DNA from: an uncultured Phycisphaeraceae bacterium
Lineage (GTDB): Bacteria > Planctomycetota > Phycisphaerae > Phycisphaerales > UBA1924
DNA: 64,000 bases
Assembly: GCA_942490855.1 (NCBI GenBank)
Contig: CALNYS010000002.1
Location: forward strand, 92,341 to 156,340
Direction: 5' to 3'
In this document: positions 2,461 through 61,619 of the stretch, in pieces
How the letters are laid out: each line of letters starts with the position of its first letter
Numbering within the stretch: the first letter of the stretch is position 1
Notes under the pieces: generated by a model
What the model was told of the DNA's origin: nothing
Seen by the model: the letters and a program-made list of their open reading frames with translations, nothing else
Databases searched by the model: none
Program-made: the position numbers and the translations under genes

Positions 2461-2854
2461 CGCAATACTCCTTTTTTCTTCGAAAGAAAAGAACGAAAGC
2501 ACAAGGCATCGAACACTCAACGCTACACGCGTCGATTCCCGACGCCGCATCGACCCTACCGCAATCGGCGCCCTCTGACAAGCATGAAAAGAGTTATGCG
2601 CCCCGTGCTGCACCATGCGCGCCCGCGCGCCGCGGCGCGACGGCGCGGCTCGTCCCCGTCCCCTTGCGCCCGCGGCGCACGGGCGGTAGTGCGCACGAAA
2701 CCCGGGCCCGGGCAACGTCCGAGAGCCCACCGACAGCGGGGCGCGAGGCTCGCCCGATCGCCATATCCGCTCGGACCGGCCCCTTCCACTCGCCCGCCGC
2801 GCGAACGCCGCTTGACGCGTAACGAGCCCCCCTTTCCCGGCCGATACCGCCCTC

Positions 2855-3709: not shown

Positions 3710-3729
3710 GTTTTCAGTATCGTTCGTGG

Positions 3730-7638: not shown

Positions 7639-7685
7639 GAAAGCGGCTTTCGTTCTGTCGGGGGCGCGGGCGCGCCGGTTGCTGC

Positions 7686-8432: not shown

Positions 8433-8456
8433 GGTATGTGTCCTCCCGCTCCCAGC

Positions 8457-20401: not shown

Positions 20402-20531
20402 CTCTCGAACTCCTCCGTGGCGCCGGCGGGTGTGCAGCCCGATCGGCGTCAACTACACCATACCGCGGAAGTCGCGCCGGACCAACGCAAGAGTGCAGAG
20501 AGATTGGGTTGTGCGGTCTGTGCGGGTTGCG

Positions 20532-23224: not shown

Positions 23225-23396
23225 GATGCAGGCTCTGAGCGGAATGGACGGGACAGTGGCTCAGGCTGCAACTTAGCTAATCGCAACCCGCTATCACAGA
23301 AAAAATGCGCGATCGCCCCGTCTTTGTACCTGTGCGTTCATGCCCCTCTCGCTCGGAAAACGACCCACCAACCGAACAGCGGAGAGAAGGAACTCT

Positions 23397-25321: not shown

Positions 25322-26677
25322 TTAGCCCGTGGCGCCCCAGCCGGCGAGCATGATGGCGAGGTCAGCGGAGTTGACGATGCCGTCGTTGTTGAGGTCGGCG
25401 ACGCCGCAGTCGCCGGAGCCCCATGCGGCCAGGAGCACGGCGAGGTCGGCCGAGTCGACGGCGTTGCTCTGGTTGACGTCGCCGAGGGCGACGGAACCGT
25501 TGACGCGGTAGATGTTGCCGTTGAAGCTGAGGATGTAGAGCTCGCCGTTGGCGTCGCGCCCGAAGGCGGAGACGTTGCCGACGCCGCCGAGCTCGGCGGT
25601 GTGCTCGATGTAGTCGGACGCGGAGCCCTCACCGTCGACGTCGAAGGTGACGAGGAACGACGCGACGCGCCCGGAGACGAAGTCGGCGAAGTAGTAGCGT
25701 CCGCGGTTGTGGGCCATCTCGGTCCCGCGGTAGATGTAGCCGCCGGTGATGGAGCGACCGAAGGCGGACTGGGCGTAGTCGAAGATGGGGTCGGTGAAGG
25801 ACTCACCGGCCGGGGGCGCGCAGCCGTTGAAGGCGGCGATGCCCTCGCGGCAGCGCCAGCCGTAGTTGCGGCCTCCCTCGCCGGCGGGCTCGTAGTTGAC
25901 CTCTTCGCGGGCGTTCTGCCCGACGTCGCCCATGATCATGCCGTTGGTGGCGCAGGCGCTGAAGTCGTCGAAGGTGAAGCGCCAGGTGTTGCGGACGCCG
26001 TAGGACCAGATCTCTTCGACGAAGGTCGGGTGCCCGGCGTAGGGGTTGGTGGCGGGGATGTCGTAGCCGGTGGCGGTGTTGATATCGAGGCGGAGGATCT
26101 TGCCGAGGTACTGCGTGCGGGTCTGGGCGCGGTTGTTGGGGTCGCCGCCGGAGCCGCCGTCGCCCATGGCGACGTAGAGGTATCCGTCGGGGCCGGTGCG
26201 GATGCAGCCGCCGTTGTGGTTGGAGAAGTCCTGGTTGATGATGAGGAGGACTTCTTCGGAGCTGAAGTCGCCGACGAGGTGGTTGAAGCTGCCGCCGCCG
26301 GACGTGAGGGTGTAGCGGGCGATATGGGTGTCGCCGAAGTTCGCGCCGTTGGTGGTGTAGTTGATGTAGAAGCGGCCGTTGTTGGCGAAGTCGGGGTCGA
26401 GGGCCATGCCGAGGAGGCCGCGCTCGGAACCGGTGCTGATGCGGGTGGAGATGTTGAGGAACGGTGTGGCGACGAGCGCGCCGTCCTCGATCACCCGGAT
26501 GGTGCCGTTTTGCTGCACGACATACTGGATGTTGTCGAACGCGGTGTTCTGGACGAAATCGAGGGGGCTGCTGAGACCCGAGACGTACACCTCGCGAGAG
26601 ATGGTCTCAGAGGCCAGAGCCGGGGCGGCGCCCAGGACGCACGAAGCAGCGAGCGCAAGACAAGCGGTGCGGAACAT
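25322..26677 (-). CDS. PQQ-dependent sugar dehydrogenase (soluble aldose/sorbosone dehydrogenase family) with C-terminal double dockerin-like module
   Basis: ATG at 26677 preceded by GGAGGAG. Signal peptide MFRTACLALAASCVLGAAPALA. Motifs present: GLLGMALDPDF, HNGG, GDGGSGGDPNNRAQ, LGKILRL, YGVRNTWRF, GWRCREG. The C-terminus is VDSADLAVLLAAWGSGDCGVADLNNDGIVNSADLAIMLAGWGATG. Confidence 0.85.
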   Translation of the reverse strand: MFRTACLALAASCVLGAAPALASETISREVYVSGLSSPLDFVQNTAFDNIQYVVQQNGTIRVIEDGALVATPFLNISTRISTGSERGLLGMALDPDFANNGRFYINYTTNGANFGDTHIARYTLTSGGGSFNHLVGDFSSEEVLLIINQDFSNHNGGCIRTGPDGYLYVAMGDGGSGGDPNNRAQTRTQYLGKILRLDINTATGYDIPATNPYAGHPTFVEEIWSYGVRNTWRFTFDDFSACATNGMIMGDVGQNAREEVNYEPAGEGGRNYGWRCREGIAAFNGCAPPAGESFTDPIFDYAQSAFGRSITGGYIYRGTEMAHNRGRYYFADFVSGRVASFLVTFDVDGEGSASDYIEHTAELGGVGNVSAFGRDANGELYILSFNGNIYRVNGSVALGDVNQSNAVDSADLAVLLAAWGSGDCGVADLNNDGIVNSADLAIMLAGWGATG

Positions 26678-26928
26678 GTGAACGATCTCCTCCTGGCCCT
26701 CCCGGACCATTGGCGACACGATCCCTCACACTCTCGGCGAGCGTTTGAAGGCGTGCGACTCAGCGGGGACGCTGCGACATCGTCCGATCGACGTCGGCGT
26801 CCGTATACCTGACCGTACACAACGCCTCGGCGGTGGACCAGAGCGATCTGGATGATTTGTGACGATCAGGATGGTCCGCGTTCCCGGACGTCCCCCGGGG
26901 GCCGCTACCGGCTACCATCCGACCGGCG

Positions 26929-28971
26929 ATGGTGACGCCCCCCAACCAACCCGACGTCGGCGGCGCGAAGAGCGTCCGGCTTGAGGTCCTCCCGTCGTCT
27001 CCCGGCGCGCCCCGGAGCCGGATGGGTCGTCGGCGGGCGTGGGTGCTGGCGCTTGTTCATGTCGTGATCCTGCTGCACATCGCCCACTGGGTCTGGCGGG
27101 GGGAATCGGTCTCTCCGGTGGAGCCCTCCGAGGCGATGTACACCCTGAGCGAGGGCGAGCTCAACGCCGGGGCGGTGTTCTTCGGGGTCGCGCTGCTGTC
27201 GACGGTGCTGTTGGGTCGGCTCTTTTGCGGGTGGGCGTGCCACATCGTGGCGCTCCAGGACGCGAGCCTGTGGCTTCTGAAGAAACTCAAGCTGCGCCCG
27301 AGCGCGTTCCGCTCTCGTCTGATGCTGTGGTTCCCGCTCGGGCTGGCGCTGTACATGTTCGTGTGGCCGGCGGCGAAGCGCTGGCTGGTCGCGCCCGTGA
27401 TGGAGTCGGCGTGGCCGGCGGGCCTGGCGTACATCGGGGCGGCGCCGGACTGGTCGCACCTGGAGAACGCGTTCATCGTCGAGGACTTCTGGGCGACGTT
27501 CCCGACGCTGTGGGTGGCGATCCCGTTCTTCTTCATCGTGGGGTTCGCGGTGGTGTACACGCTCGGCGCGAAGGGGTTCTGCACGTACGCGTGCCCGTAC
27601 GGCGGGTTCTTTGCTCCGCTCGACAAGATCAGCCCGATGCGCATCGTGGTCGATCACGACAAGTGCGCCAGCTGCGGCGTGTGCACGGCGGTGTGCACGT
27701 CCAACGTGCGCGTCAACGAGGAGATCAAGGACTACGGGATGGTCGTTGACCCGGGGTGCATGAAGTGCCTCGACTGCGTCAGCGCGTGCCCGTCGGACGC
27801 GCTGGCGTACAAGCCGGCGGCCCCCCCGCTCTTTGCGACGAACCCGCGCGAGCCCGACGCCGCCAGCGTCCGCAAGCGGAAGAAAAAGCCGAAAACCCCT
27901 GCGACCAAGGCGAGATGGGACCTCACGCCCACGCAGGAGATTGTCCTCGCGGGGTTCTTCCTGCTCACGTTCGTGTCGGTGCGCGGGCTCTACGGCGTGA
28001 TCCCGATGCTTCTCGCGGGCGGGGTCGCGGCGATCGCGTCGTGGGTCGTCTGGAAGGCGTGGCGCACGCTGACGGACGCGAACGTGCGCGTGCACGGGTT
28101 CCAGCTGCGCCGGCGCGGGCGGATCACCTTCTGGGGCGGGGCGTACCTGGTCGGGACGCTCGCGCTCGTCGCGATGGTGGCGCACTCCGCGGTGCTGAGC
28201 GTGCACTGGGCGTCGGGGATGACCGCGCTCAACCGCGCCGCGCTCGTTTCGGACGGGATGATCGCGGGCGATGCGCGCGAGCACTACGAGGAGGCGGCGC
28301 GCCGCTTCGAACGGGTCCACGCGATCGGGCTCGCGACCACGCCCAAGACCGACTTCCAGCTCGCGCTGGTGAACTTCGCGCTCCAGCGGTACAGCGAGGG
28401 CGAGGAAGCGCTGCGCCGGGTGATCGCGCGCGAGGGCGAGAAGGACGGGCTCGCGGTCGATCTCGCCCAGCTCATGCTCGCGCAGGGGCGGGGCTTCGAG
28501 ACCGTTGACTACCTCAACGCGGTGCTGGAGCGCCACCCCGAGTTCCCCGAGACCCGCTGGACGCTCGGCGCCCTGTATCTCGGCGCGGGCCAGGCGGAGA
28601 ACGCGGTGCGCACGTTCCGGGCCGGCGCCGAGGCGCGTCCTGATGACTACGTCGCGCACGTCAAGCTCGCGGAGGCGGAGATCGCCGCGGGGCGCCCCGA
28701 GGACGCGACGGGCCCCCTCGCCCGGGCGCTCGAGCTCTACCCGGAGGCGGCGGGGTTCCGGAAGGACTATGCGCTGGCGCTGGAGTACGCCGGGGAGCCC
28801 GAGCGGGCGCTGCAGGAGATGGAACGGGCGGCGGGGGACGCCGATCCGAGCGTGCGGGCGGACTTCCTTCGTCTGGCGGCGGGGATCGCCGAGCGGGCGG
28901 GCCGTTTGGAGGATGCTCGGCGCCTCAACGGGCTCGCGGCCCATGCAGAGGGCCTGAGGGCCCGAGAATAG
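26929..28971 (+). CDS. Membrane polyferredoxin (NapH/CcoG-like 4Fe-4S protein) fused to C-terminal TPR repeats
   Basis: FCGWACH, CTYACPYGG, and two ferredoxin motifs (CASCGVCTAVC and CMKCLDCVSACP), followed by more TM helices and TPR-like repeats. An alternative start at ATG 27022 (MGRRRAWVLALV) is possible. Confidence 0.8.
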   Translation: MVTPPNQPDVGGAKSVRLEVLPSSPGAPRSRMGRRRAWVLALVHVVILLHIAHWVWRGESVSPVEPSEAMYTLSEGELNAGAVFFGVALLSTVLLGRLFCGWACHIVALQDASLWLLKKLKLRPSAFRSRLMLWFPLGLALYMFVWPAAKRWLVAPVMESAWPAGLAYIGAAPDWSHLENAFIVEDFWATFPTLWVAIPFFFIVGFAVVYTLGAKGFCTYACPYGGFFAPLDKISPMRIVVDHDKCASCGVCTAVCTSNVRVNEEIKDYGMVVDPGCMKCLDCVSACPSDALAYKPAAPPLFATNPREPDAASVRKRKKKPKTPATKARWDLTPTQEIVLAGFFLLTFVSVRGLYGVIPMLLAGGVAAIASWVVWKAWRTLTDANVRVHGFQLRRRGRITFWGGAYLVGTLALVAMVAHSAVLSVHWASGMTALNRAALVSDGMIAGDAREHYEEAARRFERVHAIGLATTPKTDFQLALVNFALQRYSEGEEALRRVIAREGEKDGLAVDLAQLMLAQGRGFETVDYLNAVLERHPEFPETRWTLGALYLGAGQAENAVRTFRAGAEARPDDYVAHVKLAEAEIAAGRPEDATGPLARALELYPEAAGFRKDYALALEYAGEPERALQEMERAAGDADPSVRADFLRLAAGIAERAGRLEDARRLNGLAAHAEGLRARE

Positions 28972-29201
28972 ACAGCCTCTGACGTGATTCTTACCTCTTT
29001 TCCCTGACTTCTCTCTTTGTCAACCCGCCGAGTCGGCGTATTCTTGAGGTGCAAAGAGGAGTGATGGATACGAGTTCTGCGCCACCTGTGCGGCGCGCGT
29101 CATCCAGCACCGGCGTCAGTGGGACCCTGTCGCCGGAGTGGGAGTCTGTGGTCCTGCCCGTCTGCTGACGGGACTATTTTTCGATAGAGAGGCAGAGATA
29201 C

Positions 29202-30287
29202 ATGATGAAGTTCAACGTCATGCTCGGAGCAGCGCTTGCTTCGGCTGGTGCGGCTATGGGTGGGTTTTCCAACGGCGATATTGTCTTTACCGACAGCCCC
29301 GACGACGCGATCCGCGTGATCCGCGCGGGCTCGGGCACCCTTGAGACCCTGCACACGTTCACCGACCCGAACAACGACATCCGACTCGCGGACATCACCC
29401 GAGTCAACGGCCGTTACTACGTCAACTCCGGCTTCGCCGACGCGGACGCCGGCGTGCCCGGGCAGCTGATCGAGGTCCAGCACCTCTTCGGCGCGTCGTC
29501 GGCTTCGACGTTCTCGAGCGGCAACATGCTGCAGAACCCCATCGGGCTCGGGTACCACCGCGGCTCGGATCAGTTCCTCTCGGTCAACAACACCGGCCAG
29601 ACCGCGATGCAGACGGCGCCCGACTTCGACGGCATCATCGGCGTGTCCCGTGCCGACGGCACGCAGACGTTCCGTTTCGACGAGCTCGTCGGCGACCAGA
29701 ACTTCCCCCGCTACCAGGCCGGCGCCCAGATGACCCGCGACGCCTCGAACCGCGACCGCTTCCTGGTCGCCGCGGTCAACGGCGGCGTCCTCCGCGATCC
29801 GGACAACCTCCCCCCCGGCGACTTCAACAAGGGCTCCGCCATCTACAGCGTTGATGTCGATATCTCCGGCAACACGAGCGTCAGCCTCTTCGCCGACTTC
29901 AGCGCCACCGACTTCGGCCCGCTGACCTTCGTCCGCGGCGTCACCAGCGCCGTCGGCAACGACGGGTTCCTTGACGTGTACGTCTCGGACGGCTTCACCA
30001 ACGCCATCTACCACGTCGACACCGACGCCAACGGCGACGTGGTCGGGATCAACCAGCTCATCGACGGTCTCGACAACCCCGGCGAGCTCATCTACAACCA
30101 GTACAACGACTCGCTCGTCTTCTCCGGCGTCGGCGACAGCACCATCTCCGAGTACTTCTTCGGCGACGGCACGATCACCACGCTCGCGACGGACGTGAGC
30201 TCCCGCGGCTTCTACATCGTCCCGGCCCCGGGCTCGGTCGCTCTCTTCGGCGTCGCCGGCTTCGCCGCCGCGCGTCGTCGCCGCTAA
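29202..30287 (+). CDS. PEP-CTERM sorting-domain secreted protein (propeller-like body)
   Basis: Signal peptide MMKFNVMLGAALASAGAAMG. The C-terminus is VPAPGSVALFGVAGFAAARRRR. Confidence 0.8.
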   Translation: MMKFNVMLGAALASAGAAMGGFSNGDIVFTDSPDDAIRVIRAGSGTLETLHTFTDPNNDIRLADITRVNGRYYVNSGFADADAGVPGQLIEVQHLFGASSASTFSSGNMLQNPIGLGYHRGSDQFLSVNNTGQTAMQTAPDFDGIIGVSRADGTQTFRFDELVGDQNFPRYQAGAQMTRDASNRDRFLVAAVNGGVLRDPDNLPPGDFNKGSAIYSVDVDISGNTSVSLFADFSATDFGPLTFVRGVTSAVGNDGFLDVYVSDGFTNAIYHVDTDANGDVVGINQLIDGLDNPGELIYNQYNDSLVFSGVGDSTISEYFFGDGTITTLATDVSSRGFYIVPAPGSVALFGVAGFAAARRRR

Positions 30288-32458: not shown

Positions 32459-33733
32459 TTATTCGCCGTCGTCCCAGTCGGCGAGGAGGATCGAGAGGTC
32501 GGTGCTGTTCACGACGCCGTCGTCGTTGAGGTCCGCGGGGTCCTGGCCCTCGAGGACGCCCCAGCGGTTGAGGAGGATGGACAGGTCGGACATGCCGACG
32601 CTTCCGCTGAGGTCGATGTCAGACCATGACGTCGCCGGGGGGATGATCTCCACGGTGGTGCGCGGGTCGTCGATGTGGAACACGTCGGCGTAGGCGTGCA
32701 TCCCGATCGCCGCGACGCCGGGGCCGGTCTCGACGGCGTCAACCGTGAACGTGCGCGTTTCCCCGGCGGGGATCGCGATGCTGATCTTCTCGACCGTCAG
32801 GCTGAGATTGCGCCCGAAGATCGCGACTTCGTAGACGTGGTCTTCGTCGTCGATGTTCGTCAGGGTGTTCTCGAACATCATGACGCGCGCCCCGCTCTCG
32901 GTGCGGGCGAGCATCTGCGCGTGCCCGGCCTCGAACTCCGTGTACACATGCGAGTCGGCCACGACGAAGTCCTGCGCCATGCCCTCGGCCGCGACGTCGC
33001 CCGAGATCATGTACTCGTCGAGACGCACGCCGTCGACGCGCACCCGCCCGAGGTCGTCGGGGTTGGAGCGGAGGACCACGACGTCGCTGATGGCGTACCC
33101 GTTTGAGAAGTCGGTCCCGTTGGCGAACTCGGTCGAGACGATCACCATCGGGTCCGCCTCGTTCGTGGTGGCGCTGGAGGCGAGGGGCTCGCAGAAGGTC
33201 TTGGACTTGCCGGAGTAGGGCCAGTGCGTCCCGCCGTCGCGCGTCGTCCACATGCTCTTGGTGAACTTGTCGGGCGTGCCGTCGCCGTCGGAGTCGCACA
33301 CCCAGACCATCCAGGTGTTGCGTCCGCAGGGGTACAGGCACCGCCCGAGCTCTGTGCCCTTGCCGGTCTCGCCCATCTTCTTGAAGGTCGGGCGGAAGTG
33401 ATCGCCGCCCCCGCCGGGGGTGGTCGGATCGCCCACGCACGGGAGCGACAGGGTGTTGCCGCAGCTGTCCGTCGCGGGGAGGTTCGGGCCGCCGTTGGGG
33501 TTGGGGATGATGATCGGCTTGCACCACGAGTCGTTGACGCCGTCGCCGTCGAGGTCGCAGTCGTAGGGCGGCTGCGGGTCCCCGTACGGGTTGGGCGGGC
33601 AGGAGGCGCCGCCGAAGCCGATGGTCGTCTTCTGACACGCCCAGGCCGAGGAGGCCGTCGCCAGCCCGGCGACCGTGACCAGGAGAAGCGACGACGACGT
33701 CAAGCGACCGAGAGTTCGAGTGCGAGTGTTCAT
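32459..33733 (-). CDS. Secreted Cys-rich protein with calcium-loop-like D.D.DG motifs and C-terminal double dockerin-like module
   Basis: Signal peptide MNTRTRTLGRLTSSSLLLVTVAGLATASSAWA. Motifs present: DCDLDGDGVNDSWC and CDSDGDGTPD. The C-terminus is DLSGSVGMSDLSILLNRWGVLEGQDPADLNDDGVVNSTDLSILLADWDDGE. Confidence 0.75.
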   Translation of the reverse strand: MNTRTRTLGRLTSSSLLLVTVAGLATASSAWACQKTTIGFGGASCPPNPYGDPQPPYDCDLDGDGVNDSWCKPIIIPNPNGGPNLPATDSCGNTLSLPCVGDPTTPGGGGDHFRPTFKKMGETGKGTELGRCLYPCGRNTWMVWVCDSDGDGTPDKFTKSMWTTRDGGTHWPYSGKSKTFCEPLASSATTNEADPMVIVSTEFANGTDFSNGYAISDVVVLRSNPDDLGRVRVDGVRLDEYMISGDVAAEGMAQDFVVADSHVYTEFEAGHAQMLARTESGARVMMFENTLTNIDDEDHVYEVAIFGRNLSLTVEKISIAIPAGETRTFTVDAVETGPGVAAIGMHAYADVFHIDDPRTTVEIIPPATSWSDIDLSGSVGMSDLSILLNRWGVLEGQDPADLNDDGVVNSTDLSILLADWDDGE

Positions 33734-34189
33734 TGATGCATCCCATCTGCAATACGTGCGCAGCGACAGCGCCCCGACGCCGGGAGGCCGTCAGACCACG
33801 AGAAATTCCGATGACTTGGAACGGAGACGCCCGAACGCACCGAGGCGTCACTCCGCCCGCGGGAAGCCCCGCTCACCGATCACTATACGCTTATGGGACG
33901 CGTTGGCAAGACAAATATAACTACGGTTATCTATTCGCGCAAAACCCTATCAAACAAGTATCTATCTCTGATCCGAAGCGCGGATCGGCGCACGAACACG
34001 CGAATATTTGGAGCGCAACACCTTAGTTCTAAGAATGCATAAAAAATCCGCCAACACGCCGTACGGCCCCGCCGGGCCTGAAGATCCGGCGCTGGCTGTG
34101 GCAGCGGGTGGCTCACGCCGGGCGGGCTTGGGCAGGGCGCCTCAGAGAACATCGCCTGGGCCCGTGCGCGCTCCTGCGGAGTCGCCGAT

Positions 34190-36129: not shown

Positions 36130-36255
36130 ATGCGGGTCGTTCTCGGAAAATCGCGCAGGAAATCGCTGTGGAACGGGTATTCTTACGGGTACCTCACGCC
36201 GCCCGAGCGCGGCGAAGAAGAAGTCGCACCAGCTACCCGTAGGGGGATCCCACAC

Positions 36256-37929
36256 ATGTCCGCACGCACGCTCCTGCTGTCGGGCGCTCTATTCACGAGC
36301 GTCCTCGCCTCGTCCGCCTCCGCCGACGTCTTCAACACCGCGACGAAGGCGCCGGTCTGGCAGGGCGAGATGGGCAACGCGCAGATCCGGATGCGGATGG
36401 TCGAGTTCGACAGCTCTGAGATCCTCAACGCGCGCAACGGCGAGGTGACGATCCAGCTCTTTGACGACAGCGTCTTCACCGGCGCGACCGACCTCCTCGA
36501 GCACCGCGACGGCGACAACTTCACGTGGCGCGGGCGCACGGACGACCCTTCCTCTTACGCGATCATCGTGAGCCAGAACGGCGAGACCGCCGGCTTCGTG
36601 CGCGAGGACGGTCGCGTGTTCGAGATCATCCCCAGCGGCAACGGCGTGAGCCGCATCGCTGAGGTTCACGTCGAGGCGCTGATGCCTTGCGGGCTCGACG
36701 CGGCGGAGATCGCCGCGAACCCGCTGATGAACGGCGAGACCATCGACGACCTCATCGCCCGGACGGACAAGGCCGAGGCCGACGCCGCCGCGACCTCCCC
36801 GGAACGCGGCGCCCCGATCCCGACCTTCGACCAGCTCGTGGCGTACACGCCCAACGCGCTCTCGTGGGTGGGCGGTTCTGAGAGCGGCATGTTCGCGTTC
36901 ATCGACGCGGCGATCGCCGACATGAACACGATCCTGAGCAACAGCGCGATCGGCATGACGACCCGCGCCGTCTTCAAGCACCCCCTCGACGAGAACGAGA
37001 CCGGCGAGGGCGCCACGGACCGCAACGCGTTCCGCATCAACGGCGACGGCAAGTGGGACGAGGTGCACGAGCTGCGTGACGACTTCGGCGCCGACCTGTG
37101 CCACATCCTCGTCCGCGACTCGAACGTCTGCGGCATCGCCGCGATGATCTACCGTCGCAGCGCCGGGAGCGACGCCTTCGCGTTCTGCCTCACCGCGATG
37201 AGCTGCGTCTCGAGCCAGACGTTCACCCACGAGGTCGGGCACTGCATCGGCTGCGCCCACGACATCGACAACGCCGGCGGCGTCGGCGGCGCGGGCACGT
37301 TCTCGTACTCCTTCGGGTGGCGCGACCCGATCGACGCCACGTGGCGCACGAACATGTCCTACGCCCCGGGCTCGCGCGTGTCCTACTTCTCGACCCCCGA
37401 CTTCAACCACCCCGACGGCCAGCCCCTGGGCGACCCCGTCTGGGCGAACAACGCCAACACGATCGACCTCAACGTGCCGTTCATCACCGCGTGGCGCGCG
37501 AGCGTCGGCCTCGCGCCGACGGCCATGCAGGCCTCGGTCGACAGCTCCGGCATCGACATCTCCTGGAACCCGGTCGCGCAGGCGGTGAACTACCAGATCT
37601 GGCGCGGCGCTACGGACAACCCCCTCTCGTCCCAGCAGCGCGGCGTCTCCGCTACCACCTCGTGGCTCGACGACAACGTCAACCCCGGGCAGACCTACTA
37701 CTACTTCACCAAGGCGCGCTTCGCCGACGGCGGCCTGAGCCCCTTCAGCGAGGGCATCATGGCCACCGCCGCCGCTGAAGTCGGCGCGGACCTCGACGGC
37801 AGCGGCGTGGTCGATTCGACCGACATCGCCATCATGCTCGCGTCGTGGGGCACCCCCAACGCGGACCTCTCCGGCGACGGCACCACCGACTCGACCGACA
37901 TCGCCATCCTGCTCGCCTCGTGGGGCTAA
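36256..37929 (+). CDS. Secreted metzincin (reprolysin/M12B-like) zinc metalloprotease with C-terminal double dockerin-like module
   Basis: The ATG at 36256 gives the signal peptide MSARTLLLSGALFTSVLASSASA. The zinc motif is HEVGHCIGCAHD (HExxHxxGxxH). An Fn3-like segment follows. The C-terminus is GADLDGSGVVDSTDIAIMLASWGTPNADLSGDGTTDSTDIAILLASWG. Confidence 0.85.
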   Translation: MSARTLLLSGALFTSVLASSASADVFNTATKAPVWQGEMGNAQIRMRMVEFDSSEILNARNGEVTIQLFDDSVFTGATDLLEHRDGDNFTWRGRTDDPSSYAIIVSQNGETAGFVREDGRVFEIIPSGNGVSRIAEVHVEALMPCGLDAAEIAANPLMNGETIDDLIARTDKAEADAAATSPERGAPIPTFDQLVAYTPNALSWVGGSESGMFAFIDAAIADMNTILSNSAIGMTTRAVFKHPLDENETGEGATDRNAFRINGDGKWDEVHELRDDFGADLCHILVRDSNVCGIAAMIYRRSAGSDAFAFCLTAMSCVSSQTFTHEVGHCIGCAHDIDNAGGVGGAGTFSYSFGWRDPIDATWRTNMSYAPGSRVSYFSTPDFNHPDGQPLGDPVWANNANTIDLNVPFITAWRASVGLAPTAMQASVDSSGIDISWNPVAQAVNYQIWRGATDNPLSSQQRGVSATTSWLDDNVNPGQTYYYFTKARFADGGLSPFSEGIMATAAAEVGADLDGSGVVDSTDIAIMLASWGTPNADLSGDGTTDSTDIAILLASWG

Positions 37930-40978: not shown

Positions 40979-43435
<2,457 letters not shown>

Positions 43436-43491
43436 TGCGTTTCTCCTCCGGTAGGTCCGGGGGAGTTATCGGCACAATCTGCGCGGGGGCG

Positions 43492-53749: not shown

Positions 53750-54538
53750 TTACCCGGCGCACGACCCCCACGCCGCGAGCAGGATCGCCAGGTCGCCCGA
53801 CAGCGTGTCGCCGTCGCCATCGAGGTCGGCGCCGTTGGTTTCCCACGCCGCCAGCAGCGACGCGAGGTCCGACGAGTCGGTCACGCCGTCAGCGTTGAAG
53901 TCCGTCGGGCACGGGACGATCAGCAGGTTCTCCCGGATCCACGCGATCGCGTCCTGCTGCTCGGCCTCCGCCGCCGGGAGATCCCCCGACGTCGGCTCCC
54001 AGCGGTAGACAAAGTAGAACTCTTCCGAGTCCTCCAGCGTCGCGCTCGAGAACCGGAACGTCCCGAGGTAGATCCCCGGCTGCTGATCGATCACGAGGAA
54101 GTGGTCGGCGTGATTGTGCACGTCGCCGAACTCCGTCGCGTTCATCAGCGGGCCCGTGACGACGACGCCCTCGCTCGTCGGCGACTGCGCCGTCTGGTTG
54201 TTGTGCTCGATCTCCAGGTAGTGCGCCGGGTCCACGTCGTCGAACCCGTCGCCGTTCCACAGCTTGAGCGGCGCGGCGAGATCGAGCGAGAAGACCGTGA
54301 ACGCGGGGAGGGCTCCGAGCGCCGCGTTGAAACCGGGGTCGTCGGTGACGATGTTCCCGAAGAAGGAGATCGGGTCGGCGTCGAACACGCGCTCGGGGAC
54401 GACCATCCCCCCCTCCCCGACGCGGTTGGTCGTCAGGCGCCCCTCGTGCGTGTCGAGGATGACGTCGAGGTCGTGCAGCGTGCCCGCGGACGCCGGGCCG
54501 GCGATGAAGAGGACGAACACGAGACGGATGGTGCGCAT
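53750..54538 (-). CDS. Secreted protein, paralog of the next gene, with C-terminal double dockerin-like module
   Basis: The ATG at 54538 gives MRTIRLVFVLFIAGPASAG (the track ORF begins two codons earlier at a TTG). The C-terminus is VPCPTDFNADGVTDSSDLASLLAAWETNGADLDGDGDTLSGDLAILLAAWGSCAG. Confidence 0.75.
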   Translation of the reverse strand: MRTIRLVFVLFIAGPASAGTLHDLDVILDTHEGRLTTNRVGEGGMVVPERVFDADPISFFGNIVTDDPGFNAALGALPAFTVFSLDLAAPLKLWNGDGFDDVDPAHYLEIEHNNQTAQSPTSEGVVVTGPLMNATEFGDVHNHADHFLVIDQQPGIYLGTFRFSSATLEDSEEFYFVYRWEPTSGDLPAAEAEQQDAIAWIRENLLIVPCPTDFNADGVTDSSDLASLLAAWETNGADLDGDGDTLSGDLAILLAAWGSCAG

Positions 54539-54610
54539 GAGCAAGCTCCGGTGGTGGGTGCGTGAATCGCCCCGACGCCGCGTCAGCTGCGCCGGGGCGG
54601 GGCAGTAAGA

Positions 54611-55306
54611 TCAGGCGCGACGACGGCGGGCGGCCGCCATGCCGCCCAGCGCCAGAAGCGCCGCGCCGCCCGGAGCCGGGACGAGTACATCCTCCACGTA
54701 CTCGATCGCCGCCTCGTGATCGATCTCGTCGCCGCCGAAGTTGCCGACGAACCAGAACGTCTCGGAGTTCGCGGGGACGCCGCCACGAACCGAGTCGGTG
54801 GCGAAGAGCTCCATCGCGATCAGGTAGACGCCGTCAGCGCTGCCGTCGAGCGGCGCGTTGAGCACGATCTCGAAGTGATCGTCAAACCCGCCCCCGCCGA
54901 CGGGGACCGCGAAGCCGGGGGTGAACCCGCCGGCGGAACCGGGCGTGTCCATCTCCGCGCCGAGCAGCTCGTAGGTCACGGTGCTTGGGGACACGGCGCT
55001 GAAGTCGCTCCCGTTCCAGACGCGGACGGCGTCCACGAAGTTGACGCCCCAGCTCATGCCGGCGAGCGTGCCCGCCTCCGCGAAGAACCCCGGCTCGTCG
55101 GAGATGTTCTCCCCCTCGCCGTTGCCCCACTCGAACGCGAACACGCGCTCGCGCTCCTCGACGATCGTGTCGCCCGTGTGGCTCCAGGACCCGGTGACGA
55201 GCGTGTCGTCCACGACGTGCAGAAGTACGTCAACGCCCTCCCCGTGCGCAAGGGCGAGGGAAGCAAACGAAGCGGTGCAGACCGAAACAGTAATCGTGCG
55301 AAACAT
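54611..55306 (-). CDS. Secreted protein, paralog of the previous gene, with a PEP-CTERM tail
   Basis: The ATG at 55306 gives MFRTITVSVCTASFASLALA. Its body aligns by eye with the 53750 product (RERVFAFE/PERVFDAD, SDEPGFFAEAG/TDDPGFNAALG, VRVWNGSDF/LKLWNGDGF). The C-terminus is VPAPGGAALLALGGMAAARRRRA. Confidence 0.75.
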   Translation of the reverse strand: MFRTITVSVCTASFASLALAHGEGVDVLLHVVDDTLVTGSWSHTGDTIVEERERVFAFEWGNGEGENISDEPGFFAEAGTLAGMSWGVNFVDAVRVWNGSDFSAVSPSTVTYELLGAEMDTPGSAGGFTPGFAVPVGGGGFDDHFEIVLNAPLDGSADGVYLIAMELFATDSVRGGVPANSETFWFVGNFGGDEIDHEAAIEYVEDVLVPAPGGAALLALGGMAAARRRRA

Positions 55307-55344: not shown

Positions 55345-56193
55345 TCAGCGGTACAGACGCGGGTCGAAGAGATTCCTCTCTTCGCTCTCGTAGACCTCGC
55401 TGAACCTCATCGTGGAGCCGTGCCCGTCGAGGAACGTGTAGTTGGAGGCCGTCCCCCACCCCGCGTCCTCGGCGTTGCTCCGAACGCTCGCGCGCTCCTG
55501 TCCGGAGAACCCGCTGTACCCCTCCGCCCAGTTCCCCGGCGCGCCGCCGTAGGCGCCGACCGACGCCTGCTGCGACGCGAAGAACGGGAGGTAGGCAGGA
55601 TCGAACCGCGCGCTCGTCGCCCACTGCTGGACGTGCACGTGGTCAGCGCCCGCGAAGGGCCCGTGCTCGGCCATCAGCAGGAACTGACAGGTGAGCGCCG
55701 GGGCGGCGATCTTCTGCATCCGGTTGAAGTACCGCGACGCGATCGTCGCGGCGCTGTCGCCGGGCTGCAGATCGATCTGGAGCTGCGACGTCACCATGTC
55801 GTTGACGCCGTAGCTCGTCGCCCGGAACCGCCCGGGGAACCCGGGGATGTGCTCCCCCTGCCCCCCCTGTTCGACGGACCAGTGCGGGCTGAGGTCGCCG
55901 GGGGACCGCCGATCGATCCCCTCGTCAACGTAGGAGCGCAGGGTGTTGACCCACGCGAGCTCCTCGCGGGGGCCCACGCCGCCCTCGGGGAGCCCCGGCT
56001 CGATCAGCCGCCCGCGTTCGTCCTCGCTGTACATCAGGCTCCCGATCTGGAGCTGACGCATGGTGCTCAGGCACGCGACCGACCGCGCCGCCAGCCTGGC
56101 GCTGCCCAGCGCGGGCAACAGCAGACCGATCAACACGGCGATGATCGACACAACAACAAGGAGCTCGATGAGCGTGAACGCGCGCGTGCGCAT
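55345..56193 (-). CDS. DUF1559-type pseudopilin-like protein (prepilin N-terminal cleavage/methylation domain)
   Basis: MRTRAFTLIELLVVVSIIAVLIGLLLPALGSAR is a type IV pilin-like N-terminus. The C-terminal motif NYTFLDGHGSTMRF is of the H-X9-DG type. This architecture is typical of Planctomycetota. Confidence 0.85.
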   Translation of the reverse strand: MRTRAFTLIELLVVVSIIAVLIGLLLPALGSARLAARSVACLSTMRQLQIGSLMYSEDERGRLIEPGLPEGGVGPREELAWVNTLRSYVDEGIDRRSPGDLSPHWSVEQGGQGEHIPGFPGRFRATSYGVNDMVTSQLQIDLQPGDSAATIASRYFNRMQKIAAPALTCQFLLMAEHGPFAGADHVHVQQWATSARFDPAYLPFFASQQASVGAYGGAPGNWAEGYSGFSGQERASVRSNAEDAGWGTASNYTFLDGHGSTMRFSEVYESEERNLFDPRLYR

Positions 56194-56271
56194 ACGGGTT
56201 CTCCTGTCTGGAAACCGGACCGGGCGCGCAGAGGGCGCGCGACTACAACGATGAGGCGTTGCGAGGCGGGG

Positions 56272-56634
56272 TCAGGCGCAGACAGGAGGGGCGCGGGGCG
56301 GGCCGGCAGACCAGGCCCAGGCGCGGACGGGCGTCTCGGCGCCCGGTCGTTCGATCCGCACAAACGCGTGCGCATCGATGAACGTGAACCCGCCGGGCGA
56401 CGTGAAGGCGCGGTCGGCTGACTGGAGCGTCAGACAGACCGGGCACTCATCCTCGTCGGGCGATGGCTCGGGGGACTCGTCAGAATCATGCGATGTCGCC
56501 GCCCGCTCGCACCCGTGCGCGTCCGCGGTGTCACCCGGGGCGTGCGCGAGGACCCGGTGCAGCGTCTGCCCGCCACCGCTGACGGCGAGGGCAAAGGCGA
56601 CTATCCCGAGCATGTTGAGAAGGCGAGTCGTCAC
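56272..56634 (-). CDS. Small membrane-anchored acidic protein with a CPVC motif
   Basis: GTG start (an alternative ATG lies at 56613). One TM helix (LLNMLGIVAFALAV), an acidic linker (SHDSDESPEPSPDEDE), then CPVCL. Confidence 0.45.
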   Translation of the reverse strand: MTTRLLNMLGIVAFALAVSGGGQTLHRVLAHAPGDTADAHGCERAATSHDSDESPEPSPDEDECPVCLTLQSADRAFTSPGGFTFIDAHAFVRIERPGAETPVRAWAWSAGPPRAPPVCA

Positions 56635-56680: not shown

Positions 56681-56713
56681 GCAAAAACAAAAAAACCCGG
56701 CCGGGCCGGGTTT
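56681..56713 (-). terminator. Rho-independent terminator downstream of the GFN-repeat gene
   Basis: Perfect 8-bp stem AACCCGGC/GCCGGGTT with a 3-nt loop, followed on the minus strand by TTTTTTTGTTTTT. Confidence 0.85.
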
Positions 56714-56754
56714 CTCGGACACTAGGGAAGGAGAGATTCAGTCAGACGCGAGGC

Positions 56755-57522
56755 TCAGGCGGCTTCGGTGTTGAACTTGGGGGCGCCGGTGAAGCCGATG
56801 CCGCCCTGCTGCTGCCCGTTGGAGTTCGAGAAGCCGTTGGGCGTGGGGCCCTGAAAGCCGTTGGGGGCGCCGTTGAACCCGGCGAAGTTCGGGTTGAACC
56901 CGAAGAAGCCCTGGTTGTTGATCGGGGAGCCGAAGGACGGGGCGATGCCCTGACCGCCGCCGAAACCGTTGGCGATGCCGGGGTTCATGCCGGGGTTGAA
57001 ACCGCCGTTGAAGCCAGCGTTGAAACCGGAGTTGAAGCCGGGGTTGAAGCCGCTGCTAAAACCGGGGTTCCAGCCGAAGCCGTTCCAGCTCGTGGGGCCG
57101 CCGAAGCCGCCCGTGCCGCCGCCGAAACCGCCGTTGAAACCGCTCTGAAAACCGGGGTGGAAGCCACCGTTGAAGCCGGGGTTGAACCCGCCGTTGAAGC
57201 CAGCGTTGAAACCGGAGTTGAAGCCGGGGTTGAAGCCGCCGAACGAGGGCGAGGCGTTCCAGGAGTTCTGGGGGCCGAAGCCGCCGAAGGGCTGACCGAA
57301 GCCGGCGCCGAAGGGCGTGTTGAACGCGGGGGCGTTCCAGTTCGCGGGGCCGTTCCAGTTGGCGGGGCCGTTGTTCCACGAGTTGGTCGGGCCGTTGCCC
57401 CACGCGCCGTTCCACGGGGTGTTCCAGCCGGTGGAGCCGTTGAAGCCGCCGTTGAAACCGGGGTTCCAGCCGAACGTGTTGAAGAAGGGCTGGAAGGGGG
57501 CGGTGGCGAAGGGAGTGGTCAT
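56755..57522 (-). CDS. Gly/Asn/Phe-rich low-complexity repeat protein (GFN/FG-like repeats)
   Basis: ATG at 57522 preceded by AGGAG. 255 aa made almost entirely of GFNxGFN, WN and FG units. Third-codon positions are almost all G/C in this frame and not in the antisense frame. No signal peptide is evident. Confidence 0.75.
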   Translation of the reverse strand: MTTPFATAPFQPFFNTFGWNPGFNGGFNGSTGWNTPWNGAWGNGPTNSWNNGPANWNGPANWNAPAFNTPFGAGFGQPFGGFGPQNSWNASPSFGGFNPGFNSGFNAGFNGGFNPGFNGGFHPGFQSGFNGGFGGGTGGFGGPTSWNGFGWNPGFSSGFNPGFNSGFNAGFNGGFNPGMNPGIANGFGGGQGIAPSFGSPINNQGFFGFNPNFAGFNGAPNGFQGPTPNGFSNSNGQQQGGIGFTGAPKFNTEAA

Positions 57523-57822
57523 GTGTGTCGCTCCTGAGGAGGGTGTGGTTCGGCCGCGGTCTCTGCTCCGCGTCATCGGCCCGTCGGCGCGGCGGGCCGC
57601 GATCCCTGAGGCATAAACGCGTTACCGGACGCCCCGCGGCGGGACGCGTCCGCGTGAGCTATCGGCGACTCCGGGGAGCGACTTCGCGGGCGGCGCGTTT
57701 TTTTCGTTCCGGGCAGCGGGGTTTCTTCACACCCGCTTCAAAACACCCGCGCCCGAAGCTCACGGTTTTTGCGTGCGGCGCCCGCTCCTGGCGCGGTAGC
57801 CTCGCAGACGAGCGAGGAGAGA

Positions 57823-58358: not shown

Positions 58359-60893
58359 CTACTGCGGCGCGCCGCGCAGGAGGTCCCCCGCCCGGAGCGT
58401 CAGCGGGTGCTCGAGGCCCAGCTGCTCGCTCAGCGCCCGCGCGGCCGCGGCGAGGTCGCCCGGCGTCACCAGCTCCCGCCCGGTGTCGCGTTCGATCTCG
58501 CCCAGGATGACCGCGAGGCGTGCGCGCGGGACGGCCCCCGGCGGGAAGAGCGCGTGGCACGTCTGGCGGATCTCGCTCCCGAGCGCGGCCGCGGCCGCCG
58601 TCCGCCCGGCCCGGCGCATGGCGTCGACCGTGTCGATCACCGCATCGACGACCGCCGGGCGGTCGGAGCCGTCGGCCTCGGCCAGCCCGGTGACGCGCCG
58701 GGTGAAGACGTCCACCGCCTCGCTGTCACGCCCTTCGCGCTGGAGCGCGCGCGCCAGCGCGAGGCGCAGCTCGGCGACGGCGGGGTCGGAGGGCGTCAGG
58801 ACGGCCGACGCGCTCGACTCGAGCTCGGTCAGGATCGCCGACCCCGAACCGAGGGCGAGCTCGAGCTCGAGCTGGGCGAGGAGCGTCTCGGGGTGGCGGG
58901 GCCCGAGGCTGCTGCGGTTGATCTCCACGAGCGTGCGCATGCGGGTCTGCGCCGCGGGGAGGTTGCCCGTGAGGCGCGTCGCGGCGCCGAGCAGGCGCGA
59001 CAGGCGCGGGGCAGAGGCCAGCGATCCTGACGCGCGCGGGAGCGCGGCGCGCAGGGCTTCGATCGCTTCGTCGACGCGTCCGTTCTCGATCGCGATCTCC
59101 GCCTCGGCGATCCGCGCCTCGAGCCACTCGGGCGAGTCGGGATCGACCACGCGGCGCGCCCGGGCGTAGAGCCCCAGCGCGTCGCCCGGGCGACCGAGGC
59201 GGTGGGCCAGCTGCGCCCGCACGATCAGAGCCGACCCGACGCGCGACGGATCACCCCCGCCCGGGAGCGCGTTCTCCAGGCGCCCGGCGAGCGCCGTCGC
59301 CTCGGCGAGGTTCCCGCGCTCGGCGAGCGTCAGCGAGAGGACGCCCACGACGTCGAGCGTCTCCCCGGCATCGGGCCCGAGCAGGCTCTCGCGCGCGTCG
59401 AGCGCCGCGCGCAGCTGCGCCTCGGCCTCGGCGTAGCGTCCCAGGCGGTGCAGGGCCTGCCCGATCGCCAGGCGCAGCGACGCCTCGACCAGCGGGTCCT
59501 CGTCGAGTTCTTCATCGAGCCGGGCGACGGCCTCGTCGAGCATCTTCGTGACGCTGGCGTCTCCACCGGTCTCGCTGACGCCGATCATGTCGCGCAGGAG
59601 CGTGACGACGCGCTCGGCGCGCTGCGCGGAATGCTGGGCCTGCTCGCGTGCGAGCGCCTCGGCGCTCTGGGCGCGCCCCGCGGCGACCGCGAACCACACG
59701 CTGACGAGCGTCGCGATGATCAGCGCCGCCGCGACCGCGCCCACCCCCGCGACCATCCCGGCGCGACGCCTCGCGAAGAGACGGAACTGGCGCCACAGCC
59801 CGGGGCGCGACGCCTCCACCGGCTCGCGGCGCAGGTACCGCGCCACGTCGGCCGCGAGCGCCTCGGCCGACTGATAGCGGCGCACCCGCTCGGGCTCGGT
59901 CGCCTTGGAGATGATCGACTCGAGATCGCCCCGCGCCGCCGGGTTGCACGCGCCCGCGCGCCCCACGCGCCGTCGGCGCAGCAGATCCGCGGCTTCCACC
60001 AGCGATAACCCGTCGAGCTCGTGCGGCGGGCGGTCGCACACCAGCTCGTAGAGCACGACGCCGAGCGCGTAGATGTCCGTGCGCACGTCGATGTCGTCGC
60101 CCCCGGGGCGGAGCTGCTCGGGGCTCATGTACTGGAGCGTCCCGACGAGCTGCCCGCCGAGCGTCCCGACCGTCCCGCTCGGGTCGTCCTCGACGGCGCG
60201 GGCGACGCCGAAGTCGATCACCTTCGGCTGCCCGTTCGCGCCGACGAGCAGGTTCGCGGGCTTGAGGTCGCGGTGGATGACGCCCTTCTGGTGCCCGTGG
60301 TGGACGGCGCCGCAGATTTTGATGAAGAGCGCCAGCCGCGCGTCGAGCAGCAGCGCGCTCTCGCGGGCGTAGCGCGTCACAGCGCGGGCCTCCGGGACGA
60401 GCTCCATCGCGAAGTAGGGCGCCGAGAGCGCGCCGTCGGAGTGCGTCCCCGCCTCGTAGATCTGCGCGACCCCGGGGTGGCGCAGCAGCCCGAGCACCTC
60501 GGCCTCGTAGCGGAAGCGGCGCAGCGCTCGCGGCGACATCGCGCCGGCGCGCAGGACCTTCACCGCCACGGCGCGCTTGGGTTCGTCCTGCTCGGCCTCG
60601 TACACCGCGCCCATCGAGCCCGACGCGATCAGGCCCGTGATGGTGAACCGCCCCACACGCTGCCCGACGAGCGCCTCGGCGTCGGGCGTGTCGTCGGGGA
60701 TGCGGTCGATCACCGATTCTTCGAGGAACGTGTCGTCGGGGTCGTGGTGCCCGAGGAGCGATCCGACCTCGGCCGCCACGCCGGGCTCGCGCTGCTCGAG
60801 CGCACCGAGGAACTCCCGCCGAGCCGCGTCGTCCATCCCGAGGGCTTCGGAGAAGGCCTCCTTCACCTGGGCGTGGAAGGCCTCGCCCGTCAC
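58359..60893 (-). CDS. Ser/Thr protein kinase with one TM helix and a large C-terminal TPR-like domain
   Basis: The GTG at 60893 overlaps the sigma factor stop (GTGA). Kinase motifs present: VAVKVL, HRDLKPANLLV, DFGVAR, GTLQYMSPEQ. TM segment MVAGVGAVAAALIIATLVSVWFAV. Repeated helical pairs follow. Confidence 0.88.
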   Translation of the reverse strand: MTGEAFHAQVKEAFSEALGMDDAARREFLGALEQREPGVAAEVGSLLGHHDPDDTFLEESVIDRIPDDTPDAEALVGQRVGRFTITGLIASGSMGAVYEAEQDEPKRAVAVKVLRAGAMSPRALRRFRYEAEVLGLLRHPGVAQIYEAGTHSDGALSAPYFAMELVPEARAVTRYARESALLLDARLALFIKICGAVHHGHQKGVIHRDLKPANLLVGANGQPKVIDFGVARAVEDDPSGTVGTLGGQLVGTLQYMSPEQLRPGGDDIDVRTDIYALGVVLYELVCDRPPHELDGLSLVEAADLLRRRRVGRAGACNPAARGDLESIISKATEPERVRRYQSAEALAADVARYLRREPVEASRPGLWRQFRLFARRRAGMVAGVGAVAAALIIATLVSVWFAVAAGRAQSAEALAREQAQHSAQRAERVVTLLRDMIGVSETGGDASVTKMLDEAVARLDEELDEDPLVEASLRLAIGQALHRLGRYAEAEAQLRAALDARESLLGPDAGETLDVVGVLSLTLAERGNLAEATALAGRLENALPGGGDPSRVGSALIVRAQLAHRLGRPGDALGLYARARRVVDPDSPEWLEARIAEAEIAIENGRVDEAIEALRAALPRASGSLASAPRLSRLLGAATRLTGNLPAAQTRMRTLVEINRSSLGPRHPETLLAQLELELALGSGSAILTELESSASAVLTPSDPAVAELRLALARALQREGRDSEAVDVFTRRVTGLAEADGSDRPAVVDAVIDTVDAMRRAGRTAAAAALGSEIRQTCHALFPPGAVPRARLAVILGEIERDTGRELVTPGDLAAAARALSEQLGLEHPLTLRAGDLLRGAPQ

Positions 60894-61504
60894 TCCTGAG
60901 GATCCTCCGGGGCGATCCCGCGCAGCAGCTCGCGTCGGAGCCACGCCTTGGCCATCGCCCAGTCGGACTCGACGGTGCGCTGCGAGACGCCCAGCACGTG
61001 GGCGACCTCGTTCGCGCCCAGCCCGCCGAAGAAGCGCAGCTCCACGACGCGGGCCTGTCGTTCGTCGAACGCCTCGAGCTTCTGGAGCGCGTCGTCGAGC
61101 GCGATCATCTCGACGTGATCGACGCCCTCGACCAGCGGGCGGTCGAGCGTGACCCGCGCCCACGACCCGCCGCGTTTGGCGGCTTTCGTCGCCCGGGCGT
61201 GGTCGATGAGCACGCGCCGGATCATGCTGGCGCCGACCGCGATGAAGTGAGCGCGGCTCTTCCAGTCGGTCTTGCGCTGATCGACGAGACGGAGGAACGC
61301 CTCGTTGACGACGGCCGTCGGCTCGAGGGTGTGGTTGGCGCGTTCCTGTCGCAGGTAGACGGAAGCGAGGGCCCGGAGCTCGTCGTAGACGAGGGGCATG
61401 AGGTCTGCCGCGGCGCCGTGCTCGCCCTCGGAGAGAGCGTTGAGGCGGTCGGTGGCGTCGGCTGTCTGGTCGGGAGGCCTAGTCATCGCTTCAGATGTAC
61501 GCAT
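60890..61504 (-). CDS. ECF-type sigma-70 family factor (kinase-associated ECF type)
   Basis: LMPLVYDELRALASVYLRQERANHTLEPTAVVNEAFLRL, IRRVLIDHARATKAAKRGG, VVELRFFGGLGANEVAHVLGVSQRTVESDWAMAKAWL. Confidence 0.88.
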   Translation of the reverse strand: MRTSEAMTRPPDQTADATDRLNALSEGEHGAAADLMPLVYDELRALASVYLRQERANHTLEPTAVVNEAFLRLVDQRKTDWKSRAHFIAVGASMIRRVLIDHARATKAAKRGGSWARVTLDRPLVEGVDHVEMIALDDALQKLEAFDERQARVVELRFFGGLGANEVAHVLGVSQRTVESDWAMAKAWLRRELLRGIAPEDPQE

Positions 61505-61619
61505 GGTACGCCCGATGGGTCCGTTTCAGCGGATCGGGGGCGGAGGACGTCAATCTTTCATAAAGAGAAAGGCGCAGGCTTTGCCGGTGTCTATTCTTAT
61601 CGGCGGAGGGGGAGACGAG

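Follow-up and report, generated by a model that had tools for sequence, protein, structure and literature searches.

Paralogous secreted proteins with PEP-CTERM-like and dockerin-like tails follow a pilin-like gene and a CruR-like leader in Phycisphaerales

In choice-of-anchor families, so named by D. Haft in NCBIfam and TIGRFAMs, one extracytoplasmic domain is found with differing C-terminal sorting signals. The PEP-CTERM architecture was described by Haft et al. 2006, with Planctomycetes, which also carry EpsH, among the carriers (PMC1569441). Copper-sensing leaders are known from the DUF2946, or CruR, family. The Bordetella pertussis member is exported and, while still nascent, senses copper via a CXXC motif; copper sensing relieves translational arrest at a C-terminal RAPP motif, thereby controlling the downstream genes (PMC9426467). 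The two motifs of CruR are ~45 residues apart, RAPP lies three residues from the end, and DUF2946 homologs head copper-related operons with CopC and YcnI genes among the downstream ones (PMC9426467). CutF of Rhodobacter capsulatus works similarly (PMC9973294). Here we analyse a 64-kb stretch of DNA from an uncultured Phycisphaeraceae bacterium (hereafter the window; GC content about 64-76%), in which two adjacent genes on the minus strand encode secreted proteins with related bodies and different C-terminal tails. The product of 53750..54538 is termed A and ends in a dockerin-like module; the product of 54611..55306 is termed B and ends in a PEP-CTERM-like tail. Both genes lie behind a pilin-like gene and a leader open reading frame (ORF) that resembles CruR.

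Both ORFs were confirmed at these coordinates, and their products are identical to two database proteins (P0001 for A, P0018 for B) encoded on one NCBI contig. A has 262 amino acids (MRTIRL...WGSCAG) and consists of a signal peptide (residues 1-18, cleaved between ASA and GTLHD), a beta-sandwich body with a helix (19-208) and a tail (209-262; 53914..53753, minus strand) that forms a double dockerin-like module bracketed by Cys residues (C210...C260). B has 231 amino acids (MFRTIT...ARRRRA), with a signal peptide (1-20, cleaved between ALA and HGE), a beta-sandwich body with a helix (21-208) and a PEP-CTERM-like tail (209-231; 54682..54614, minus strand) made up of VPAPG, a hydrophobic helix and RRRRA. 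BLASTP aligned A with B at E=1e-7 and 24% identity across ~198 residues, and every motif pair quoted in a preliminary description of the window was recovered in that alignment. Comparison by hhalign of profiles built from 17 A-type and 32 B-type homologs gave a probability of 99.94% and E=9e-37 over 200 columns. In A the hhalign match takes in residues 1-210 and stops at ...LIVPC; in B it takes in 1-213 and stops at ...LVPAPG. AlphaFold models made on a joint alignment (pLDDT 91 for A, 88 for B) share a common architecture, a beta-sandwich followed by one long helix (A 187-204; B 194-208), past which A has two short dockerin-type helices and B one hydrophobic helix (214-230). The preliminary description had held that the two proteins align along their whole bodies and diverge exactly at VP(C/A)P, and both statements were borne out: the alignments are significant, the models are concordant, and the end of the hhalign match coincides with the tag boundary. 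The body similarity is thus real, lies well above chance and stops where the tails begin.

The junction, whose codons lie at 53907-53918 in A and 54673-54684 in B, is itself partly common to the two types. At columns 373-375 of the family alignment the Pro of VP(C)P in dockerin-tailed members aligns with the first Pro of PAP, and the two flanking Pro columns are kept in 69% and 81% of the body family. Because the linker Pro is conserved, tail exchange appears to have occurred directly after it.

The body belongs to a large family. A profile search of 1.84 billion representative proteins, clustered at 50% identity, returned 1,634 clusters at E<=1e-3 and 1,085 at E<=1e-10. Among 195 family sequences, ~120 carry PEP-CTERM-type tails, ~60 carry dockerin-like tails, which are Cys-bracketed double repeats of several flavours, and 11 carry other tails, including two unnamed C-terminal domain types of ~100 residues each. 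At least four tail types are therefore found on this body, and two members (P0050, 681 aa; P0051, 444 aa) have three or two tandem bodies before a single dockerin tail. What defines a choice-of-anchor family is that homologous bodies carry different C-terminal modules, of two or more kinds, and the body family is one by that definition. No Pfam or NCBIfam model matches the body or the third and fourth tail types, and a profile search of the body family against PDB sequences returned no relevant match. Foldseek searches of the PDB with the models of A and B gave weak matches (TM-score 0.26-0.49, root-mean-square deviation (rmsd) 5-9 A), with the FimH/FmlH lectin domains first; these were too weak for a fold family to be assigned.

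The pairing of the two tail types is conserved between species. A scan of one genome per species yielded 18 loci, all from Phycisphaerales, Phycisphaeraceae or Planctomycetota metagenome-assembled genomes, and hidden Markov model searches of their ORFs showed that 15 of them have a dockerin-tailed and a PEP-tailed copy as direct neighbours in the same orientation. Orthologs of A and B themselves occur together on eight contigs. A single body gene was found in L006, L010 and L020, as well as where the tail is of a third or fourth type. In the clade of the window the PEP-tailed gene precedes the dockerin-tailed one; elsewhere the order is reversed. When a neighbour-joining (NJ) tree was built from the bodies only, they clustered according to tail, in no case with the adjacent copy, and three species groups were each recovered in both tail lineages with 96-100% bootstrap support. 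As read from this tree, a single old duplication with the tails fixed ever since would be the most parsimonious history; support for its deepest node is only moderate. Both kinds of copy have been retained for a long time, which argues for distinct roles of the tails and of the copies; the tails look complementary, not interchangeable.

The pair is part of a larger unit, whose upstream genes the preliminary description had left out of its reading. On the 5′ side a strong terminator-like hairpin (56690..56716, minus strand; 12-bp stem followed by a T run) ends a G/N/F-rich gene and marks the boundary of the unit. The leader ORF follows (56272..56634, minus strand), then a C-rich intergenic spacer (56194..56271, minus strand) with AGGAG 7 nt before the ATG of a prepilin-type (N_methyl) pseudopilin-like gene (55345..56193, minus strand; 282 aa), and then B and A. 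The gaps inside the unit are 78, 38 and 72 nt long. Given the upstream terminator and these short gaps, the leader ORF, the pilin-like gene, B and A are taken to form one transcription unit; no sigma-70 promoter for it was convincingly found in the window.

The leader ORF encodes 120 amino acids with an N-terminal hydrophobic export segment. CPVC occupies residues 64-67 (56445..56434, minus strand) and RAPP residues 114-117 (56295..56284, minus strand), the latter followed by VCA and the stop codon, so that CPVC, 46 residues, RAPP and 3 residues succeed each other in the first ORF after the terminator. All features of the CruR layout given for the described members, namely an export signal, CXXC, a ~45-residue spacer, RAPP ~3 residues from the end and the first-gene position (PMC9426467), are thus present in the window ORF. 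The layout is not confined to the window: CxxC, 44-49 residues, R[AGD]PP and 2-7 residues precede the pilin-like gene at 14 distinct loci, window included, some of them with a third or fourth tail type, and 11 of the 13 leader counterparts in related loci match DUF2946 (best E=1.4e-7). Regulation may act at the spacer between leader and pilin-like gene, which in L002 measures 77 nt, about as in the window. As an exact sequence, the window leader is absent from a collection of 15 billion proteins, so that it has probably never been annotated with these coordinates. A further shared feature of the CruR-like leaders is an invariant His close behind the export segment (L-H-x-x-x-x-H), and several are His-rich before CxxC, for example HTHAHGDHSHHDH in L024 (1-507).

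The pilin-like protein passes the cut-offs of both Pfam N_methyl PF07963 (25.0 bits, cut-off 21.2) and TIGR02532 (23.0 bits, cut-off 16.3). Its C-terminal motif is FLDGHGSTMRFSEVYESEERNLFDPRLYR, and its homologs conserve the C-terminal motif FLDGHAxTxxFxxVY...N.FDP. An N_methyl gene stands directly upstream of the body gene or genes at all 16 loci with upstream sequence, and the same holds for five further loci (L021-L025), third and fourth tail types included.

Residue conservation in the body was assessed over 193 family sequences (61 dockerin-, 16 other- and 116 PEP-tailed), in the numbering of A. D25 is kept in 99% and H143 in 98%, with only H or D at position 141; P68-G69, W94, F99 and G155 are near-invariant besides. 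A His within a few residues before D25, mostly as HxxD, is present in 60/61 dockerin-tailed, 15/16 other-tailed and 78/116 PEP-tailed bodies. In 45 of the 116 PEP-tailed sequences, B included (ALA followed by HGEGVD), this His directly follows the AxA cleavage consensus. The N-terminal His is combined with HxH in 72 of the 77 dockerin- and other-tailed bodies, and the PEP-tailed ones mostly have DxH; the association of the N-terminal His with HxH versus DxH (Fisher p=2e-5) is confounded by phylogeny and is descriptive only. Conservation of HxxD, (H/D)xH and the Asp suggests a candidate metal site, which would comprise H22, D25, H141 and H143 in A and H21, D26, D142 and H144 in B. An N-terminal His together with DxH recalls the Cu(II) sites of CopC-type proteins.

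The tail of A shows the dockerin hallmark, a duplicated segment of ~22 residues in which each copy has an EF-hand-like Ca2+ loop and a helix. Its two DxDxDG...D loops, DFNADGVTDSSD and DLDGDGDTLSGD, are each followed by an L(A)xLLAAW (LxxLLAAW) helix, seen in the model at 222-230 and 247-255, and the bracketing C210 and C260 are invariant across the A-type alignment. Some relatives from the body family exceed the cut-offs of named models, P0050 that of PF00404 and P0015-17 that of NF041540. The tail of P0050, from the same body family, passes Dockerin_1 with 34.4 bits, the ortholog P0011 has a precomputed PF00404 match, and 13 of 17 A-type relatives match NF041540, the GC-type dockerin model, at E<0.1 (best 5.2e-14, in the P0015-17 group); P0016 is named by NCBI as a 'GC-type dockerin domain-anchored protein'. 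A literature search returned no paper on the 'GC-type dockerin'. The sole PDB sequence matches of the A tail are two true dockerins, both weak (E=0.2 and 0.41). The tail of B consists of VPAPG, GAALLALGGMAAA with 13 hydrophobic residues, and RRRRA, on a protein with an N-terminal signal peptide. The motif is P-A-P instead of P-E-P in nearly all 32 B-type relatives, 10 of which match TIGR02595 at E<0.1 (best 6.9e-4).

Taken together, it seems to us somewhat probable that the locus is a copper-regulated envelope module, in which an ancient paralog pair with two anchors is combined with a CruR-type leader and a pilin-like gene. A and B represent the two lineages of an ancient paralog pair of an unnamed secreted beta-sandwich domain, and each lineage has kept its own appendage since the duplication, a PEP-CTERM-type signal in B and a Cys-bracketed, Ca-loop dockerin-like module in A. 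Paralogy, tail boundary, cassette conservation, leader motifs and residue conservation are established by the analyses above, whereas copper response, metal binding, the destinations of the tails and any complex are inferred. By analogy with CruR and CutF, extracytoplasmic copper would govern expression of the unit: translation would arrest at RAPP, and the CXXC motif would modulate this arrest. The effect of copper could go in either direction, as CruR represses with copper and CutF activates. The body may bind a metal, most likely copper, via HxxD, (H/D)xH and the invariant Asp. The two tails would place two specialised copies at different positions in the envelope: B would start out embedded in the cytoplasmic membrane through its C-terminal helix, possibly to be processed by an exosortase, and A would be soluble and docked to a partner through its Ca-dependent module. 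Both may act together with the pilin-like protein. A more specific form of this account, offered tentatively and with a good deal of doubt, is a copper acquisition or handling module of Phycisphaerales, where a CruR-type arrest peptide would control a pilin-like protein and two differently anchored, His-rich copper-binding bodies, the tails marking successive metal-relay stations across the planctomycetal envelope. Such a module would hold the place that TonB-dependent transporters, PepSY, CopC and YcnI have behind DUF2946 leaders in Proteobacteria.

Several observations weigh against the copper-regulated module. The window leader reaches 22.8 bits against Pfam DUF2946 (PF11162), under the cut-off of 23.7, with a match to positions 11-117 of the 117 in the profile. 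No leader ORF was found in six loci that have the pilin-like gene and the pair (L007-9, L013, L018, L019), and copper control is therefore not universal. The N-terminal His is missing from 38 of the 116 PEP-tailed bodies. The best fold matches, weak as they are, are the lectin domains of the fimbrial adhesins FimH and FmlH, and no copper proteins. Both tails of the window pair score below the models they resemble: A obtains 12.9 bits against Dockerin_1 (PF00404; gathering cut-off 22.9) and 15.1 bits against NF041540 (cut-off 29), and B 14.0 bits against PEP_CTERM TIGR02595 (cut-off 16). No exosortase matched in Pfam and NCBIfam scans of the polytopic ORFs of the window and the fetched loci, and no cohesin gene was identified in the sequences examined, which included part of the window ORFs. 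Lastly, monophyly of all dockerin-tailed bodies has 46% NJ bootstrap support, and two PEP-only sequences fall inside the dockerin-tailed clade in a further 23% of replicates.

The absence of an exosortase from the window, as the preliminary description had stated it, agrees with the scan of polytopic ORFs, though two ORFs with 6-7 predicted transmembrane (TM) segments each match no Pfam or NCBIfam family. These adjacent ORFs (2816-3709 and 3649-4605, both plus strand) are the only remaining candidates in the window for a divergent sorting enzyme. Further along, the 702-aa product of 26863-28971 (plus strand) is a membrane protein in which 7 TM segments are predicted and a NapH-like 4Fe-4S ferredoxin region is combined with TPR repeats; the latter bear a weak likeness to PrsT of the XrtA/PEP-CTERM system (E=1e-13, far under the cut-off), and the gene lies just upstream of another VPAPG...RRRR protein (29169-30287, plus strand).

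The first reading given to this locus was a natural domain swap with functionally interchangeable tails. The occurrence of alternative tags on one body has held up, but neither the interchangeability nor a simple recent swap has. A recent tandem duplication followed by a tail swap, leaving equivalent sorting devices on redundant genes, has in its favour the same body with different tails across the family, a precise swap point and a shared junction Pro (VPCP versus VPAP). However, A and B are only 24% identical, both types have been retained in 15/18 species loci, and the conserved residues differ systematically between the tail lineages. The bodies moreover group by tail type and co-diverge, so that the phylogeny largely refutes such a history, which we regard as very improbable; with both copies long retained and the bodies grouping by tail, interchangeability of the tails is not supported. 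An obligate A-B heterodimer, with the helix of B as a permanent, uncleaved anchor and the module of A as an intramolecular Ca stabiliser or oligomeriser that binds no cohesin, fits the co-retention and co-divergence of the two copies. It is also in keeping with the PAP motif and sub-cut-off PEP_CTERM score of B, and with the lack of an exosortase or cohesin gene in the sequences examined (polytopic ORFs; for cohesin not every window ORF), although the exosortase search covered a small fraction of any genome. Single body genes in L006, L010, L020 and the loci with third or fourth tails mean that the pairing is not obligatory for the family, and in the window VPAPG...RRRR tails (three) and dockerin-like ones (at least nine) sit on unrelated bodies, as general sorting or anchoring modules would. 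We consider the obligate heterodimer improbable.

An adhesin or lectin system associated with a pilus or pseudopilus, without metal handling, is a stronger contender, though still unlikely in our judgement. The pilin-like protein would here form or prime a fibre, with the bodies attaching to a glycan or a surface; structural Ca2+ or sugar would be the ligand of the His and Asp residues, and the CruR-like ORF would only tie expression to copper status or be a generic arrest peptide. The pilin-like gene is indeed always beside the body gene, six loci have no leader ORF, and tails of the dockerin and PEP-CTERM kinds are characteristic of proteins at the surface (PMC1569441). The first Foldseek matches of both models, FimH and FmlH lectin domains and chaperone-usher pilins, point the same way, but with TM-scores <=0.5 and rmsd of 5-9 A the fold assignment is weak. 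Near-100% conservation of HxxD and (H/D)xH is more typical of transition-metal sites, and the DUF2946 leaders reported so far head copper-related operons; both speak against an adhesin or lectin system.

Tails of both types recur elsewhere in the window. The three VPAPG...RRRR tails belong to 19709-20452, 29169-30287 and B, on unrelated bodies. Besides A, ORFs ending in the dockerin-like double repeat (...DLNxDGxVxxxDLAxxLAxWG...) lie at 1642-2949, 5932-7740, 7686-8456 and 21494-23260, all on the minus strand, and at 25322-26725 (minus), 32459-33790 (minus), 36130-37929 (plus) and 40979-43465 (minus), their bodies likewise being unrelated. Since each type is found on several unrelated bodies in the window, both appear to be general-purpose modules in this organism. 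The density of the dockerin-like module within 64 kb is unusually high. Four of the nine dockerin-like tails, A counted, end in WGxC, and apparent FG-GAP repeat bodies are found in the ORFs beginning at 5932, 21494 and 40979, that of 21494 being judged by paralogy to 5932. The product of 7686-8456 was considered as a third paralog of the body on account of a BLASTP match (E=5.5e-14) and was rejected, as the hhalign match is limited to the dockerin tail.

Directly upstream of the operon, 56755-57576 (minus strand) encodes a 273-aa protein that consists of little but G/N/F/P repeats (GFNPGFNSGFNAGFNGGFNPG...), and a 208-aa gene occupies the matching position in L002. Upstream of the cassette again are an ECF-type (extracytoplasmic function) sigma factor (60890-61525, minus strand) and then a Ser/Thr kinase with TPR repeats (58359-61163, minus strand), in the same order as in the related complete genome L002. 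A regulatory link between these two genes and the cassette is possible.

Alternative anchors on one body were already known, as were CruR leader peptides, and this body is a new instance of the former. New are the body family, the paralog pair in which two anchors have become fixed, and the association of this family in Phycisphaerales with a pilin-like gene and a CruR-type leader. If the copper-regulated module is true, it would be the first clue to the function of a family of over 1,600 clusters whose body has no Pfam or NCBIfam model. It would carry CruR/CutF-type copper-sensing leaders into another phylum and place them ahead of genes of a new class, the pilin-like gene included. The pair would also allow two little-understood C-terminal modules of Planctomycetota to be compared in nature, under evolutionary control, on the same body and in the same operon, a setting well suited to localisation work. 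These bacteria appear poor in TonB-dependent transporters, and the module would then be a pointer to how copper might be handled in them. Should the copper link fail, the locus would still be a clean case of ancient paralogs subfunctionalised by anchor type.

Compared with the described systems, the leader is closest to CruR (Bp2923, in bp2923-bfrG-bp2921) and CutF (in cutFOG), with which it shares a small exported first-position protein, CXXC, a spacer of ~45 residues and RAPP 2-3 residues from the C-terminus. The genes downstream are different: a TonB-dependent transporter with PepSY, multicopper oxidase, CopC, YcnI and PCuAC in the known cases, a pilin-like gene and one or two bodies here. 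The intergenic gap, 162 nt in the described case, is 78 nt in the window, and the host belongs to Planctomycetota, where only 'a few' homologs had been noted (PMC9426467). With CopC and YcnI the body has in common a secreted beta-sandwich, a His at the mature N-terminus in B and many PEP-tailed members, a later DxH or HxH, and genes linked to a DUF2946 leader ORF. However, it has no detectable sequence similarity to them, neither is among the 50 best fold matches shown per model, and in A the candidate His is the 4th residue of the mature protein.

The two tails compare with their nearest counterparts in a similar way. B agrees with PEP-CTERM/exosortase sorting (TIGR02595) in its signal peptide, Pro-x-Pro, hydrophobic helix and C-terminal Arg cluster, and in the presence of several such tails in the same genome; it departs from it in having PAP, in its sub-cut-off score and in that no exosortase was located in the ORFs scanned. 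A has the two tandem repeats of ~22 residues, each a DxDxDG..D loop plus helix, of type I dockerins (PF00404) and of NF041540, yet it adds the conserved Cys bracket C210...C260 and scores under both cut-offs. The hypothesised 'planctosome' of freshwater Planctomycetes (PMC6461901) is, with the dockerins, a near system for this tail; unlike these, the locus of A has no carbohydrate-active enzyme context. Finally, the body resembles choice-of-anchor families in being large, otherwise uncharacterised and joined to PEP-CTERM-type, dockerin-type and other modules at one precise junction. It differs from them in matching no existing choice-of-anchor model in Pfam or NCBIfam, and in that its two tails, rather than being scattered among unrelated genomes, are fixed in co-inherited paralogs of a single operon.

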